From positions 200,694,001 through 200,758,000 of the forward strand of contig CM126208.1 of NCBI GenBank assembly GCA_052327205.1: a DNA stretch of 64,000 nt, written 5' to 3'. Positions within the stretch are counted from its first letter, which is position 1, and every line of letters starts with the position of its first letter. The position numbers and the translations under genes are program-made. The notes under the pieces were generated by a model. That model saw only the letters and a program-made list of their open reading frames with translations, was not told the DNA's origin and searched no databases. Source of the DNA: Somniosus microcephalus. Taxonomy: Eukaryota. This document shows, one piece after another, positions 55,809-64,000 of the stretch.

Positions 55809-58257
55809 TATAGAGTCATACAGCACAGAAAGAGGCCCTTCGGCCCATCGCGTCCGCGCCGGCCATCAGGCCCTGTCTAATCTAATCCCATTTTCCAGCA
55901 TTTGGTCCGTAGCATTATATGCTATGGCATTTCAAGTGCTCATCTAAATGCTTCTTGAATGTTGTGAGGGTTCCTGCCTCTACCACCCTTTCAGGCAGTG
56001 AGTTCCAGATTCCAACCACCCTCTGGGTGAAAAAGTTCTTCCTCAAATCCCCTCTAAACCTCCTGCCCCTTACCTTGAATCTATGCCCCCTTGTTATTGA
56101 CCCCTCTACTAAGGGAAAATGTTCCTTTCTATCTACCCTATCTATGCCCCTCATAATTTTGTACACCTCAATCAGGCCCCCCTCAGCCTTCTCTGCTCCA
56201 AGGAAAACAACCCCAGCCTGTCCAGTCTTTCTTCATAGCTGAGGCGCTCCAGCCCAGGTAACATCCTGGTGAATCTCCTCTGCACCCTCTCCAAAGCAAT
56301 CACATCCTTCCTATAGTGTGGCGACCAGAACTGCACACAGTTTTCCAGCTGTGGCCTAACTAGCGTTTTGTACAGCTCTATCATAACCTCCCTGCTCTTA
56401 TATTCTATGCCTCGGCTAATGAAGGCAAGTATCCCATATGCCTTTTTAACCACCTTATCCACCTGTTCTGCTGCCTTCAGGGATCTATGTACATGCACAC
56501 CAAGGTCCCTCTGATCCTCTGTCTTTCCTAGGGTCTTACCATTCATTGTGTATTCCCTTGCCTTGTTAGTCCCTCCAAAATGCATCACTTCACACTTTTC
56601 ACGATTAAATTCCATTTGCCTCTGTTCTGCCCATCTAACCAAACCCGTCTATATCGTCCTGTAGCCTGAGGCTTCCCTCCTCGCTATTTACCACTCCACC
56701 AATTTTCGTGTCATTTGCGAAATTACTGATCATACCTCCTACATTCATATCTAAATCATTAATGTACACTACAAGCAGCAAAGGACCCAGCACCGATCCC
56801 TGCGGTACACCACTGGACACAGGCTTCCAAAGCACACAAACAACCTTCGACCATCACCCTCTGCCATCTGTCACTAAGCCAATTTTGGATCCGATGTGCC
56901 AAATTGCCCTGGATCCCGTCGGCTCTTACCTTCTTGACCAGTCTCCCATGAGTGACTTTGTCAAAAGCCTTACTGAAGTCCATGTAGACGACATCAACTG
57001 CACTACCTCCTCCACACACCTAGCCACCCCCTCGAAAAATTCAATCAAATTGGTTAGACATGATCTCCCCGACAAAGCCAAGCTGACTATCCTTGATTAA
57101 ATCCTTGCCTCTCCAAGTGGAGACTAATTCTGTCCCTCAGAACTTTTTCCAATAATTTCCCTACCACTGATTTTAGGCTCACTGGCCTGTAATTCCCTGG
57201 TTGCTCCCTACTACCCTTCTTGAATAATGGTACTACGTTAGCTGTTCTCCACTCCTCTGGCACCTCCCCTGTGGCCAGAGAGGTTCTGAAAATTTGTGTC
57301 AGAGCCCCTGCAATCTCCTCCCTTGCCTCACACAGCAGCCTGAGATACATCTCGTCTGGGCCTGGGGATTTATCCACTTTTAAGCCCGCTAAAACCACTA
57401 GTACCTCCTCCCCCTCAATACTAATTTGTTCAAGTATATCACAATCCCCCTGCCTGATTTCTATGCCTACATCATCCTTCTCCATAGTGAACACAGATGC
57501 AAAATATTCATTTAAAACCTCACTTACATCTTCCGGCTCTACACACAGATTGCTACTTTGGTCCCTAATGGGCCCTACTCTTTCCCTTGTTATCCTCTTG
57601 TCCTCAATATACTTATAAAACACCTTGGAATTTTCCTTTGTTTTGCCCGACTGTTTTTTCATGCCCCCTCTTCGCACTCCTAATTTCTTTTTTAAGTACC
57701 CCCCTGCACTTTCTATACTCCTCCAGGGCTTCCACTGTTTTAAGTCCTTTGTATCTGCCAAAAGCCTCCCTTTTTTTCCTAATCCATTCTTGTATATCCC
57801 TTGACATCCAGGGTTCCCTGGGCTTGTTGGTCCCCACCCTTGACCTTTACGGGAACATATTGGCGTTGTACTCTATTTCCTTTCTGAAAGAATCGCACTG
57901 CTCTGATGTGGATTTTCCTACAAGTGGCTGATCCCAGTCCACTTTGGCCAGATCCTGCCTTTTCATATTAAATCGGCCTTCCCCCAATTTAGAACCTTTA
58001 TTTCCAGTCCATTTTCGTCCTTTTCCATGACTACCTTAAAATCACCGAATTATGGTCACCGTCACCAAAATGTTCTCCTACTGACACTTCTACCACTTGC
58101 CCGGCTACATTCCCTAGAATTAGGTCCAGCACCGCCCCCTCTCTTGTAGAATGTCCGACATGCTGGCTCAAAAAGCTCTCCTGGATGCACCCTCTAAGCC
58201 TTTCACACTCTGACTATCCCAGTTAATATTGGGGAAGTTGAAATCCCCTATTATTAC
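55809..58257 (-). mobile_element. CR1 ORF2 3' part, interrupted by a Gypsy insertion
   Basis: RT pieces at 55915-57761. Breaks at ...VIIGDFN, where the LTR TG begins. A short CR1 tail of another subfamily lies at 55755-55806. Confidence 0.9.
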
Positions 58258-58560
58258 TGTAATGAAATCTGTTTGTCTTGCCTGTATTCGTTCTTGCCTG
58301 TATTCGTTTTGCACTCATGTATATTACCCTCCCCCACACGGTGTATAGTTTCACTTCCTCTTTCCTGACTAACCTGGAAGGTTCCAGGTCTTGGCTCTTA
58401 GCTCCGCCCCTGACTTCTCTTACATAAAGATCCCAGGATCTGTATGACTCATTCCTGCGAGCCAGTCAGTGTGTTGAGATGTTAGCTCTGATCTTAGTGA
58501 TTAAAAGCCAACTTGTTAAAGTCTATAACTTCTAGTTTTGTGGTTATTGAAGGCACATCA
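58258..58560 (+). mobile_element. 5' LTR of a Gypsy retrotransposon
   Basis: Starts TGTAATG exactly at the CR1 break and ends ...GCACATCA. Contains a TATA-like tacataaa (58421) and ATTAAA (58500-58505). gag ATG at 58586. Confidence 0.75.
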
Positions 58561-58585
58561 ATTTTAATCACTAAAGAATACTAGG

Positions 58586-60226
58586 ATGGATCGACTCCTA
58601 AAACCAGAGCGTCTGGACTTGGATCCACATTCTGCTGAAGCATCAAATCAATTTGGACACTGGCTCAAATGCTTCGAACTCTTCGCGAGGGCCTCATCCG
58701 CTAGCGAGGTAGATAAACTGAGTTTACTGACTACTCGCGTTAATCATCGGATTTATTCGTTCATCCGGGACAACACCTCTTACACGGAGGCCATCACTAT
58801 CCTGAAGGCCCAATACCAGAGGCCAGTAAACAAAGTGTACGCCAGACATCTGCTGGCTACACGCAGGCAGTGACCTGAGGAATCAATGGACGATTTCTTA
58901 CAGGGCCTAAAGGACTTGGTCCGGGACTGTAACTGCAAGGCCGTGACGGCCAATGTGTACTCTGACGAATTGGTCCGCGATTCCTTCATCACGGGCCTCA
59001 AATCGAATTATTTCCGGCAGAGACTGCTGGAGGAGGTGGTCCTGGACTTAAAAAAGGCAGTGGCCACTGCGCGATCGCTGGACGTGGCCCAGAAAAACTC
59101 TGACTCTTATTCTTCCGGCCATGCGGCCCTCACCGCCTCGTGCGCGCCGAGCGCGCCGCCATCTTGGAATCAGCCATCTTCCCCATCCAGGTCTCAGACC
59201 AGCTCTACACCGCCGGAGTCCCCACACAGAAGTTCACCCAGGAGTCCTACTACAGTGGCAATGTCTCGAGGCCCGAAATGCTACTTCTGCGGCCAGGCCA
59301 AGCACCCCAGACAACGATGCCCAGCAAAGGACGCTACATGCTTCAAATGTAAGAAAAAGGGGCATTTTAGCAAAGTCTGCAGGGGGAATCTGATTTCCAA
59401 CTCCATCACCGCCTCGTGCGTGCCGTGCGGGCCGCCATCTTGGGATCCGCCATCTTTTCCCGACTCAACGGCCGCCCAGGGCCCAACAGTGGCTTCGATC
59501 ATGGTGGATCAATCCAGGCCACACCCATTGACAAAATCCATGATGGACATACAGGTAAACGGGAATTTAACGAAATGTTTAATTGACTGTGGGAGTACCG
59601 AGAGTTTTATCCACCCTAGCCTGGTACGGCGGCACTCATTAACGGTAACCCCTACACGGAGCAGAATTGCTATGGCTGCTAAGCCCCACACTTCGGACAT
59701 TTTGGGCTACTGTGTGGTAACACTGACTGTAAAAGGCACGGACTACAAGGATTTTAAACTCCTCGTGATGCCAGAACTCTGTGTTAATGTAATCTTGGGC
59801 CTGGACTTCCAGTGCCACCACGAAAGTGTCACGCTAGCATATGGTGGGTCCCAGCCGCCACTCAGTCTGTGGCCTATCAACCTTAAAAATCAGCCCGCCC
59901 TCTTTATTCGCTAATCTCGCTCCGAACTGTAGGCCCATAGCGACCAAAAGTAGACGGTACAGTCTGGAAGACAGACACTTTATCAAGGCGGAAGTGGACA
60001 GACTCCTGCGGGAAGGCATTATTGAATGCAGTACCAGTCCGTGGCGTGCCCAAGTAGTCATAGTTAAAAATAGCGAAAAGAAACGGATGGTAAATGACTA
60101 CAGCCAGACTGTTAATATTTATACCCAGCTGGACGCCTACCCTTTACCCCGCATATCAGAAATGGTCAACCAGATCGCGCAATACCGAGTCTTCTCGACT
60201 ATCGACCTCAAATCCGCGTATCACCA
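58586..60226 (+). pseudogene. Gypsy gag-protease-RT(N) region, with one in-frame TGA and one frameshift
   Basis: MDRLLKPERLDLDP gag start, two CCHC knuckles (CYFCGQAKHPRQRC, CFKCKKKGHFSKVC), protease LIDCGST, RT SPWRAQVV...DAYPLP...IDLKSAYH. Confidence 0.9.
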
Positions 60227-63200
60227 TAGAGTCATAGAGTTATACAGCACAGAAAGAGGCCCTTCGGCCCATCGTGTCTGCGCCGTCCATCAAGCCCTGT
60301 CTAATCTAATCCCATTTTCCAGCATTTGGTCCATAGCCTTGTATGCAATGGCATTTCAAGTGCTCATCCAAATGCTTCTTGAATGTTGTGAGGGTTCCTG
60401 CCTCTCCCACCCTTTCAGGCAGTGAGTTCCAGACTCCAACCACCCTCTGGGTGAAAAAGTTCCTCCTCAAATCCCCTCTAAACCTCCTGCCCCTTACCTT
60501 GAATCTATGCCCCCTTGTTATTGACCCCCCTACGAAGGGGAAAAGTTCCTCTTTATCTACCCTATCTATGCCCCTCATCATTTTGTACACCTCAATCAGG
60601 TCCCCCCTCAGCCTTCTTTGCTCCAAGGAAGGCAACCCCAGCCTGTTTAGTCTTTCTTCATAGCTGAGGCGCTCCATCCCAGGTAACATCCTGGTGAATC
60701 TTCTCTGCACCCTCTCCAAAGCAATCACATCCTTCCTATAGTGTGGCGACCAGAACTGCACACAGTACTCCAGCTGTGGCCTTACCAGCGTTTTGTACAG
60801 CTCCATCATAACCTCCCTGCTCTTATATTCTATGCCTCGGCTAATGAAGGCAAGTATCCCATATGCCTTTTTAACCACCTTATCTACCTGATCCGCTGCC
60901 TTCAGGGATCTATGTACATGTACACCAAGGTCCCTCTGTGCTTCCTAGGGCCCTACCACTCATTGTGTATTCCCTTGCCTTATTTGCCCGTCCAAAATGC
61001 ATCACCTCGCACTTTTCAGGGTTAAATTCCATTTACCACTTTTCCGCCCATCTGACCAACCCGTTTTTATCGTCCTGTAGCCTGAGGCTTTCCTCCTCGC
61101 AATTTACCACCCCACCAATTTTCGTGTCATCTGCGAACTTACTGATCATACCTTTTACATTCTCATCCAAATCATTTATGTAGATCACAAACAGCAAGGG
61201 ACCCAGCACCAATCCCTGAGGTACCCCACTGGACACAGGCTTCCAGTCACAAAAGCATCCTTCGACCATCACCCTCTGACTCCTGCCACTCAGCCAGTTT
61301 AGGATCCAACGTGCCAAGGCACCCTGGATCCCATGGGCTCTTACCTTCTTGACCAGTCTCCTATGCGGGACTTTGTCAAAAGCCTTACTGAAGTCCATGT
61401 ATACCACATCCACAGCATTTCCCTCATCCACACACCTAGTCACCCCCTCGAAAAATTCAATCAGATTGGTCAGACATGATTTACCCTTGACAAAGCCATG
61501 CTGACTATCCCCGATTAATCCTTGCCGCTCCAAGTGGAGACTAATTTTGTCCCTCAGAATTTTTTTCCAATGATTTCCCTACCACAGATGTTAGGCTCAC
61601 TGGCCTGTAATTCCCTGGTTTATCCCTGCTACCCTTCTTGAATAATGGTACTACGTTCGCTGTTCTCCAGTCCTCTGGTACATCCCCTGTGGCCAGAGAG
61701 GTTCTGAAAATTTGTGTCAGAGCCCCTGCAATCTCCTCCTTTGCCTCACACAGCAGCCTGGGATACATCTCGTCCGGGCCTGGGGATTTATCCACTTTTT
61801 GGCCTGCTAAAACCGCTAGTACCTCCTCCCTCTCGATGTTAATATGTTCAAGTATATCACAGTCCCCTTGCCCGATTTCTATGTCTACATCGTCTTCCTC
61901 CATAGTGAACACAGATGCAAAAAATTCATTTCAAACCCCGCCTACATCATCTGGCTCTACACACAGATTGCCACTTTGGTCCCTAATGGGCCCTACCCTT
62001 TCCCTGGTTATCCTCTTGCCCTTAATATACTTATAAAACATCTTAGGATTTTCCTTTATTTTGCTCGCCAGTGTTATTTCATGGCCCCTCCTCGCTCTCC
62101 TAATTTCTTTTTAAAGTATGCCCCTGCACTTTTTATACTCCTCTAGGGCTTCCTCCGTCTTTAGTAACTGCCAAAAGCCCCCCTTTTTTTCCTAATGCAT
62201 TTTTGTATATCCCTTGTCATCCAAGGCTCCCTTTGCTTGTTGGTACCACCCTTGACCTTTACGGGAACATGTTGGCGTTGTACTCTCTCTATTTCCCTTC
62301 TGAAAGTCTCCCACTGCTTTGATGTGGATTTTCCTATAAGTAGCTGCTCCCAGTCCACTTTGGCCAGATCCTGCCTTATCATATTAAAATCGGCCTTCCC
62401 CCAATTTAGAACCCTTATTTCCGGGCCGTCTTTGTCTTTTTCCATGACCACCTTAAATCTCACCGAATTATGGTCACTGTCGCCAAAATGCTCTCCTACT
62501 GACACTTCCACCACTTGCCCGGCTACATTCCCTAGAATTAGGTCCAGTACCGCCCCCTCTCTTGTAGGACTTTCTACACGCTGGCTCAAAAAGCTCTCCT
62601 GGATGCACTTTAAGAATGCTGCACCCTCTAAGCCTTTCACACTCTGACTATCCCAATTAATATTGGGGAAGTTGAAATCCCCCACTATTATTACCCTATT
62701 ATTTTCGCACCTCTGAGATTTGCCTACATATCTGTTCCTCTATCTCCCCCTGGCTGTTTGGGGGCCTGTAGTACACTCCCAGCAAAGTGCTTGCCCCCTT
62801 TTTGTTTTTAAGTTCTACCCATATGGCCTCATTAGAGGAACCCGCTAATATATCATCCCTCCTTACAGCAGTAATTGACTCTTTAATTAATATTGCAACA
62901 CCCCCTCCCCTTTTACACCTCCCTCTGTCTCGCGTGAAGATTCTATACCCCGGAATATTGAGCTGCCAGTCCTGACCCTCCCTCAACCATGTCTCCGTGA
63001 TAGCAACAATATCGTACTCCCATGTGTTCAACAACAACTTCAGTTCATCCACCTTATTTGCAAGACTCCTTGCATTAAAATAAATGCCTTCCAGCCTTGC
63101 CATATTCCCTTTTGCCTTCACATATTTGCTCTGCCTTCCCAGCTGACTTGTTTTTTCCTCCGTATTTGGCTGTAATTCACCCCCTACTATAGCTCCACTC

Positions 63201-63250
63201 TGTATCCCATCCCCCTGCCAAGTTAGTTTAAACCCCCCCCAACAGTGCTA
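60227..63250 (-). mobile_element. CR1 (complete but disrupted ORF2) inserted in the Gypsy RT
   Basis: APE at 62161-63121, RT at 60306-61912, (CATAGAGT)n tail. Gypsy rejoins as YH-CA|G-LPI. Confidence 0.92.
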
Positions 63251-64000
63251 GCTCCCCATTAGAACGGAGGACCGCCCATACACCGCCTTTGAGGCGAACG
63301 GACGCCTCTACCATTTTCTCAGAGTGCCCTTCGGGGTAACAAATGGGGTCTCGGTCTTCCAACGTGAGATGGACCGCATGGTTGACGAGAATAAACTAAA
63401 AGCTACCTACCCCTATCTGGACAATGTCACTATCTGCGGGCACAACCAGCAAGACCACGATCTAAATCTTGCGAGATTTTTAAAAACTGCCCTAAAGCTG
63501 AATCTAACCTACAACGAAGACAAATGTGTCTTCAACACAACCCGTCTCTGTATCCTCGGCTGTGTGGTGGAAGATGGGGTAATTGGACTGGACCCTGACC
63601 GATTACGCCCCCTAAAGGAACTGCCCATGCCACACAATCCCAAAGCTTTAAAAAGGTGCCTGGGATTTTTTTCGTATTATGCCCAATGGGTGCCCAATTA
63701 CTCTGATAAGGCCGACCCCTCATTAAATCGACGTCCTTCCCACTATCAGCTGAAGCTCGGGAGGCTTTCACCGGTATCAAACAGAACATTGAAAGGGCTG
63801 CACTGTGTGCAGTGGACGAAAGCATTCCCTTTCAAGTTGAAAGCGATGCGTCAGACTTTGCTTTAGCTGCGACCCTCAATCAGGGTGGGAGACCTGTGGC
63901 CTTCTTGTCCCGAACCCTTCAGGGACCTGAAATCAGGCACTCTTCTGTCGAGAAGGAGGCACAGGCTATAGTGGAGGCAGTGCGGCACTGGAGACACTAC
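63251..64000 (+). pseudogene. Gypsy pol continued (RT C-terminal half and RNase H), runs off the window
   Basis: LPIRTEDRPYTAFE...VPFGVTNGVSVFQ...YLDNV, then FQVESDASDFALAATLNQ...EKEAQAIVEAVRHW. Confidence 0.9.

Follow-up and report, generated by a model that had tools for sequence, protein, structure and literature searches.

Organization of the element and its copies in the host genome

The window, a 64,000-nt stretch of the Somniosus microcephalus genome, holds near its downstream end the 5' part of an LTR retrotransposon, the features of which are listed in Table 1. Paired TG...CA LTRs, a target-site duplication (ATTAC on both flanks of the element), a polypurine tract (PPT) and the domain order gag, protease (PR), reverse transcriptase (RT), RNase H (RH) and integrase (IN) identify it as a Ty3/Gypsy element. 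Its 3' LTR lies 6.3 kb past the end of the window (G000:C7:200764268-200764570; locus L021), differs from the 5' LTR at 2 of 303 bases and is preceded by a purine tract and AA. A first-pass annotation, made from the letters of the window, had set the end of the 5' LTR at 58560, and this position was borne out by the 3' LTR, by the target-site duplication and by the fetched 5' copies, in 20 of 20 of which the LTR boundaries were identical. RNA reads from a related species stop matching the element and continue as different sequence at 58560-58562, with run X8 contributing 123 reads that do so at 58560, in agreement with this LTR end.

The copy in the window is no longer intact: it carries a stop and frameshifts, and both a LINE and a nested Gypsy element interrupt it. 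It belongs to a young and abundant family, with 150 scored gag matches at 96-100% and, for one subfamily, at least 1641 exact LTR-primer junctions in this host genome of 6.4 Gb; the nearest named gag relatives are from sharks. The nested Gypsy element has a YLDD motif, lies in the integrase region of this copy (L021:1470-6400; G000:C7 about 200758470-200763400), is presumably Mag-like, judging by its motifs, and has an ordinary CA-C-TGG primer site. Antisense LINE fragments, which we take to be CR1-like, were found at 60231-63255 and 55900-58257; one interrupts the RT and the Gypsy element sits inside another. ARAGORN detected no tRNA genes within the window, and Rfam returned no matches in 58200-58700 at E values up to 1.

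Table 1. Features of the element in the window, with positions counted from the first letter of the window.
Feature	Position	Strand	Remarks
Target-site duplication ATTAC, 5 bp	58253..58257	.	Copy also present after the 3' LTR
5' LTR, 303 bp, TG...CA	58258..58560	+	Boundaries the same in 20/20 copies and in the 3' LTR
Predicted core promoter: GC box (58402-58409) and TATA-like TACATAAA (58421-58428)	58402..58428	+	
Candidate transcription start 1; Initiator-like CTCATT, 30 nt past the TATA	58451	+	Putative; endpoint of 3 relics (58451-58452)
Candidate transcription start 2; Initiator-like GTCAGT	58468	+	Putative; 6 independent relic junctions, inverted class only
Pairing arm in R, with ATTAAA (58500-58505)	58494..58506	+	3' part of the primer likely 58494-58505
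Putative RNA cut site	58505..58506	+	10/10 true junctions start at 58506
Template of predicted strong-stop DNA: RCC stem on the arm helix, then the rest of R and U5	58507..58560	+	
AT dinucleotide separating the primer site from the LTR end; probably the overhang of 2 nt trimmed by integrase	58561..58562	+	
Primer-binding site, complementary to the LTR arm, without TGG	58563..58574	+	
gag (twin CCHC knuckles), protease, start of RT	58586..60230	+	In-frame stop and frameshifts in this copy
Remaining RT (YLDN motif) and RNase H, past the LINE insertion	63256..64000	+	Integrase, PPT and 3' LTR beyond the window

The primer site is complementary to the element's own LTR

The first-pass annotation had remarked that a TGG-initiated tRNA primer-binding site (PBS) is missing and that a segment after the LTR is instead a perfect 13-nt complement of a segment within it. 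Indeed, TGG does not occur in 58561-58585, so there is no tRNA-type site before the gag ATG at 58586, and the two segments, 58494-58506 (TTAGTGATTAAAA) and 58562-58574 (TTTTAATCACTAA), are exact reverse complements. The element thus shares with Tf1/sushi elements a primer site complementary to its own 5' LTR. The perfect pair of 13-mers was kept in 18 of the 20 fetched 5' copies, and a 13-nt complement to the leader was found by chance in 4 of 20000 shuffled LTRs.

Relatives were collected by gag similarity, as 75 metagenome-contig loci and 12 loci of other families in this genome. Eighteen representatives had at least 100 nt upstream and a gag N-terminus 31-63% identical to that of this element (L064, with less than 100 nt, was left out). 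A perfect complement of 13-16 nt to the representative's own LTR was present in 15 of them, and none of 1000 shuffles of each reached the same length. Non-cognate pairings averaged 6.3 nt and reached 14-15 nt in only 4 of 306 combinations, all between close relatives. The three representatives that lacked a match comprised one with 12 nt and one mismatch (L097), one with a broken gag start (L085) and one with no match at all (L069). Among the metagenome loci, a 12-nt complement (0-1 mismatch) directly followed CA-A/G in 49 of 53 scorable loci, a count that includes many copies per family rather than independent families; the other 22 of the 75 loci were skipped for a broken gag start, a weak match or a short flank. 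True TGG sites were absent from all 53 related loci, the single flag (L067) being a TGG that belongs to the gag start. A search of viral contigs gave 39 pattern matches, none of which was confirmed.

Covariation between the two 13-mers had been proposed in the first-pass annotation as a check on their pairing, and across 15 divergent families the complementarity was conserved with compensatory changes. The pair table covered 12 families, with L062 and L135 (near-duplicate arms) as well as L133 left out; in it, two to four pair types, with both sides changed, occurred at helix positions 4-9 and 11-13 of 13. Arm length ranged from 13 to 16 nt across families and arm 5' ends were mostly pyrimidines. 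The register was fixed in 14 of 14 tabulated families: the arm ends in A, RCC comes next and the primer site starts after CA-A (the CA-AT register was counted by a script that required CAA). Arms were defined by their pairing; the informative part is their variety together with the fixed register. In two further families the LTR end was confirmed by 3' LTRs. The sites differ between families and each matches its own LTR, so that it is hard to see how a single host RNA could pair with every one of them; on this comparison of sequences, family-specific sites in one register argue strongly against a single shared host primer.

Two bases within the arm behave differently from their neighbours, which covary freely: the G ten and the T nine bases before the arm end (58497-58498) are near-fixed (12/12 and 11/12 families, respectively), and sequence-specific recognition of this pair of bases is possible. 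In L065 and L067 the distance from the arm to the LTR end is just 23-26 nt, so that their predicted strong-stop DNA and transfer homology would be very short.

The poly(A) signal and the predicted fold of the leader

An AATAAA or ATTAAA hexamer lies inside the arm in 10 of 14 families, while the remaining 4 have no hexamer there. The first-pass annotation had suggested that the pairing might mask the poly(A) signal of the 5' LTR, being unable to form at the 3' LTR. In the fold predictions the hexamer was fully paired in the 5' leader (probability of being unpaired 0.02 or less), but for its first four bases pairing predominated in the 3' R context as well (0.03-0.2), so the asymmetry is not clean. 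Masking as the main role was not supported, since 4 of 14 families keep the duplex without an arm hexamer. Masking of the 5'-LTR signal may therefore be a side benefit at most, not the reason for the duplex, and it would need to act during transcription, through the pairing rather than the later cut.

In all 14 families the arm is succeeded by RCC, which 12 of 14 minimum-free-energy folds place in a stem next to the helix. Measured against the three-duplex 'pretzel' of Tf1, this amounts to one conserved stem by the arm in 12 of 14 folds, and a second duplex beyond the primer site was not consistently predicted. In L052 (907-950) the arm lacks a hexamer and an ATTAAA lies in the loop of the adjacent RCC hairpin.

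Promoter and candidate transcription starts

The TATA that had been placed at about 58421 was found at that position (Table 1). Going by the usual definitions of Initiator and promoter motifs, the spacing from this TATA and the ends of rearranged copies (relics, see below) together suggest that the RNA likely starts at 58451 and/or 58468. From either candidate start the arm would be internal to the RNA, by 43 or 26 nt. An internal arm is also favoured by the variable arm length and by the mostly pyrimidine arm 5' ends. The earlier claim that the LTR partner lies inside the transcript is accordingly supported as the most likely arrangement, by TATA spacing and by relic ends at 58451-58452 and 58467-58468, the start itself being a putative one. 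The distance from the TATA to the arm end was 84-86 nt in all four shark-type families and 70 nt in L052, and several non-shark families had no clear TATA. RNA reads from the related species (runs X7 and X8) showed no pile-up of starts or of poly(A) ends in the LTR, and these reads carry no weight either way on the position of the start.

Sense-fusion relics start at a single base

Eleven matches were obtained with a pattern for LTR pieces starting immediately ahead of GCC. Ten of these, in nine elements, were true junctions, all of them starting exactly at 58506, and the remaining match was a mutated arm. At the ten junctions, which fall at five sites, the LTR piece is joined in sense orientation to DNA of the same family, from RT in 3 cases, from integrase in 4 and from gag in 3. 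Seven of the ten had no inverted copy nearby, and deletion of a palindrome therefore does not explain them. Microhomology at the five fusion sites consisted of AGCC in three and of at most 1 nt in two, which still started at the A of 58506.

Controls of the same design at three other LTR positions yielded no sense fusions to internal DNA (0/21). Near 58480 the count was 0/1, near 58525 it was 0/15 (8 small indels and 7 foreign joins) and near 58468 it was 0/5 (2 duplications, 1 insertion and 2 inverted relics). A further control was dropped as confounded by a deletion subfamily, 88 of the 100 matches listed (103 in total) sharing one 1-nt deletion. In a second family the cut-site test produced a single match, a foreign insertion, and thus did not replicate the result.

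We infer that the junctions at 58506 fit minus-strand strong-stop DNA that had mis-jumped after being copied from an RNA cut at 58505/58506. A cut at this position would leave 12 nt on 58563-58574 and an AT after the CA, matching the AA on the PPT side, which stands before TG in this family and in three others; such a spacer has the 2-nt length usual for an integrase overhang. Rather than 58562-58574, the functional primer site is likely to be 58563-58574, after an AT spacer at 58561-58562.

A separate observation on U5 was that foreign sequences were repeatedly inserted at about 58521-58526 (L139, L155, L183, L184, L187, L195 and L200), with another at 58467 (L209). Several of the U5 inserts end in one common short tail that is present in RNA reads too, and these repeated inserts are possibly a targeted mobile element.

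Inverted relics and the arm as a site of rearrangement

In 39 copies, all of which were fetched (L139-L168, L198-L205 and L026), the LTR end is followed by an inverted (reverse-complement) stretch of the LTR that reads from the arm towards the LTR start. On the downstream side, 27 of these reach LTR positions 1-36, 2 continue into the PPT and integrase and 10 stop earlier. The upstream LTR was complete in 8, carried a foreign insertion in 3, was part of a simple arm/primer-site inversion in 1 (L202) and was truncated in 27. The truncated LTRs start at 58502-58513 in ten cases (8 junctions), at 58467-58468 in seven (6 junctions), near 58429-58440 in five and elsewhere in five. The relics had been selected by their downstream side, and the ten cases at 58502-58513 speak for the proposed cut. 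At 58451-58452, where three relics end, microhomology was demonstrated in two cases and may be present in the third, and it can account for these ends. Breakpoints cluster also at 58467-58468 and 58429-58440, which makes a uniform null too generous.

Long inverted relics were considered as copies of an RNA primer, and this reading was rejected for the 29 of 39 that reach the start of U3 or beyond: a 5' RNA primer cannot template them, and so they were not counted in favour of self-priming. DNA-level fold-back, in which the copy of the primer site anneals to the arm in plus-strand DNA, explains these 29 relics, and rearrangements seem to concentrate at the priming duplex. The cluster at 58467-58468 suggests a second transcription start and, in those events, the copying of an uncut template with a primer from another strand. 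Outside the inverted class there were no fusions at 58468 (0/5 matches), compared with 7 at 58506. The second family contains two such inverted copies (L180 and L181).

A proposed priming pathway and its alternatives

The first-pass annotation had raised self-priming as one reading of the complement, and it is now the best one: a tRNA PBS is absent and the complement is real, conserved and covarying. Self-priming in some form is, in our judgement, highly probable. The more specific proposal, that this is a non-chromodomain Gypsy element whose internal 5' primer comes from its own RNA cut at 58505/58506, is one that we consider probable, with rather less assurance.

In this proposal, transcription by Pol II would begin at about 58451, 43 nt ahead of the arm, and/or at about 58468, 26 nt ahead of it. 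The arm, whose match to the primer site can be read directly from the DNA, is predicted to pair with it while the RCC stem stacks alongside, giving a junction similar to the 'pretzel' of Tf1. The relics point to a cut at 58505/58506, which, by analogy with Tf1, would probably be made by the element's RNase H and would release a capped primer of 38-55 nt, with its last 12 nt on 58563-58574. RT would then copy the AT and U5-R back to 58506, and the resulting strong-stop DNA of about 57 nt would jump to the 3' R. Plus-strand synthesis would later copy the primer end and so rewrite the primer site from the arm in every cycle, which would keep arm and site covarying.

Self-priming might instead rely mainly on the arm that lies in the genomic RNA's 3' R, or on a trans fragment from a second packaged RNA. 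Both the arm and the RCC stem are present in the two R copies, the six independent relic junctions at 58467-58468 look as if uncut RNA had been copied to the cap, and in two relics (L146 and L160) U5 cDNA is directly followed by a stretch that extends from the arm backwards across U3, the PPT and integrase. These two relics nevertheless stop at 58506 on the template side, annealing of plus-strand DNA to the primer site explains the same relics, and the cluster at 58467-58468 has no counterpart among fusions outside the inverted class, where 58506 is used. In addition, cutting the 3' R would remove the homology needed for strand transfer, and we regard a primer of this origin as unlikely. About as little weight is given to a broader scheme in which tRNA-free priming evolved in an animal-wide Gypsy lineage apart from Tf1/sushi and the R arm with its poly(A) signal acts as a two-way switch, such that a capped 5' cut would prime in cis, the arm at the 3' end or in a partner RNA would regularly prime uncut templates, and polyadenylation and priming would compete.

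An arrangement of the classic Tf1 type, with transcription starting at or very near the arm 5' end and the TATA at 58421 not serving as a working promoter, appears improbable. The near-fixed G and T in the arm resemble an Initiator core, and the lack of a clear TATA in several non-shark families would suit a start at the arm. Against this, every one of the four shark-type families keeps its TATA 84-86 nt before the arm end and none has one 30 nt before the arm, relic ends fall at 58451-58468, and in every family the pairing reaches 2-5 nt upstream of AGT, which would be unneeded if those bases were U3 sequence.

It is distinctly improbable that the duplex mainly hides the 5' poly(A) signal while the real primer is a host RNA, such as a tRNA half or another small RNA. 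Such a role would account for the arm hexamer of 10 of 14 families and its full pairing in the predicted 5' leader fold, and a few primer-site positions are nearly invariant, but it is largely refuted by the 4 of 14 families in which duplex and register are kept without the hexamer. Furthermore, primer sites are family-specific, each matching its own LTR alone, and include no TGG site; the end of the duplex is fixed against CA-AT, where the end of a primer must sit; the relics mark the end of the template at the arm; and in the 3' R, too, part of the hexamer is paired. Finally, a complement arising by chance, or a DNA-level inverted repeat with no RNA role, would go with the promotion of rearrangements (the simple inversion in L202 and the many fold-back products among the 39 relics) but is refuted by the compensatory changes across 15 divergent families and by its rarity in shuffled LTRs (4 in 20000), leaving it a negligible chance.

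Comparison with other self-priming elements

Self-priming has been shown experimentally in the fission-yeast element Tf1 and described for chromovirus relatives and for some plant lineages. According to the available text of the sources, the Tf1 primer is the RNA's first 11 bases, released by an RNase H cut between bases 11 and 12 (PMC7175516), and the 5' end of that RNA forms a three-duplex 'pretzel' (10.1101/2022.12.06.519325; PMC4600332; PMC5341516). The element described here resembles Tf1 and Tf2 (Schizosaccharomyces pombe), Tj1, Tosmo1-3 and the Tf1/sushi chromovirus group in that a tRNA site is absent and the primer site is complementary to the 5' LTR. As in the available accounts of Tf1, there would be a multi-helix junction by the central duplex (10.1101/2022.12.06.519325) and a primer cut from the RNA (PMC7175516), the cut in our case being deduced from relics. 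In contrast to the 11-nt tip of Tf1, the internal 5' primer of this lineage is likely 38-55 nt long with an internal pairing arm and, unlike in Tf1/sushi elements, the poly(A) hexamer usually lies within the arm. Comparison with Pfam (E up to 0.05) detected no chromodomain in the integrase of the element or in three full-length relatives, and the best PDB match of a relative was Ty3. In view of the missing chromodomain and the likely different position of the primer, we do not file this lineage under Tf1/sushi.

For plant Tcn1 (Gypsy) and TAR (Copia) elements, self-priming was predicted from a complementarity of at least 10 nt between the LTR and the sequence 0-5 nt past it (PMC6317226, in the text available), which is evidence of the same kind as ours but from other, plant lineages; that text mentions neither a cut site nor a start site nor an overlap with the poly(A) signal. 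Dictyostelium Skipper has lost its TGG site and unconventional priming was proposed for it; unlike this lineage, it carries a chromodomain and a polypyrimidine tract and its LTR contains no complementary region, as far as the available part of the report goes (PMC5006619). LTR motifs are described in PMC3601003, the accessible portion of which does not cover pairing.

A very large non-chromodomain lineage appears to self-prime with a geometry that differs from that of Tf1. Nowhere in the literature searched, which had subscription journals and Repbase outside its scope, was this lineage described as self-priming. Elements of this kind would be independent of tRNA and would presumably escape silencing by 3' tRNA fragments for want of a target, and annotation tools that rely on a PBS would score them as incomplete. 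The relics provide a prediction at the level of a single base, namely a cut at 58505/58506 with a 2-nt spacer, and they show that the priming chemistry of a retroelement can be mapped from its genome copies.

Relatives and placement of the lineage

Comparison by RT gave 1096 relatives at E up to 1e-20 among 1714 candidates, and the hosts of named relatives were sharks, insects, a spider, nematodes, cnidarians and a tunicate. The RT catalytic motif of 127 related proteins was YxDN in 81 and YxDD in 46. Our best guess is that the clade is Cigr-1, which would fit the features of the element: there is one ORF, about 1200 aa long, the LTRs are short and the gag is Mag-like. The available text of two studies reports the Cigr-1 clade in molluscs and annelids (PMC6238403 and PMC8556966), and it is filed under Mag in one supplement row; in the main text of both, as available, PBS, primer and tRNA have 0 occurrences. 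PMC2774666 contains no Cigr or PBS text. A clade name based on the YLDN motif was not found in the literature. Gypsy lineages called 'Ronin' and 'Ajax' are reportedly primed by snRNA, a report that we did not find in the literature. The presumably Mag-like element nested in this copy differs from the lineage described here in its TGG site, and the identity of their pol proteins is just 27-30%.
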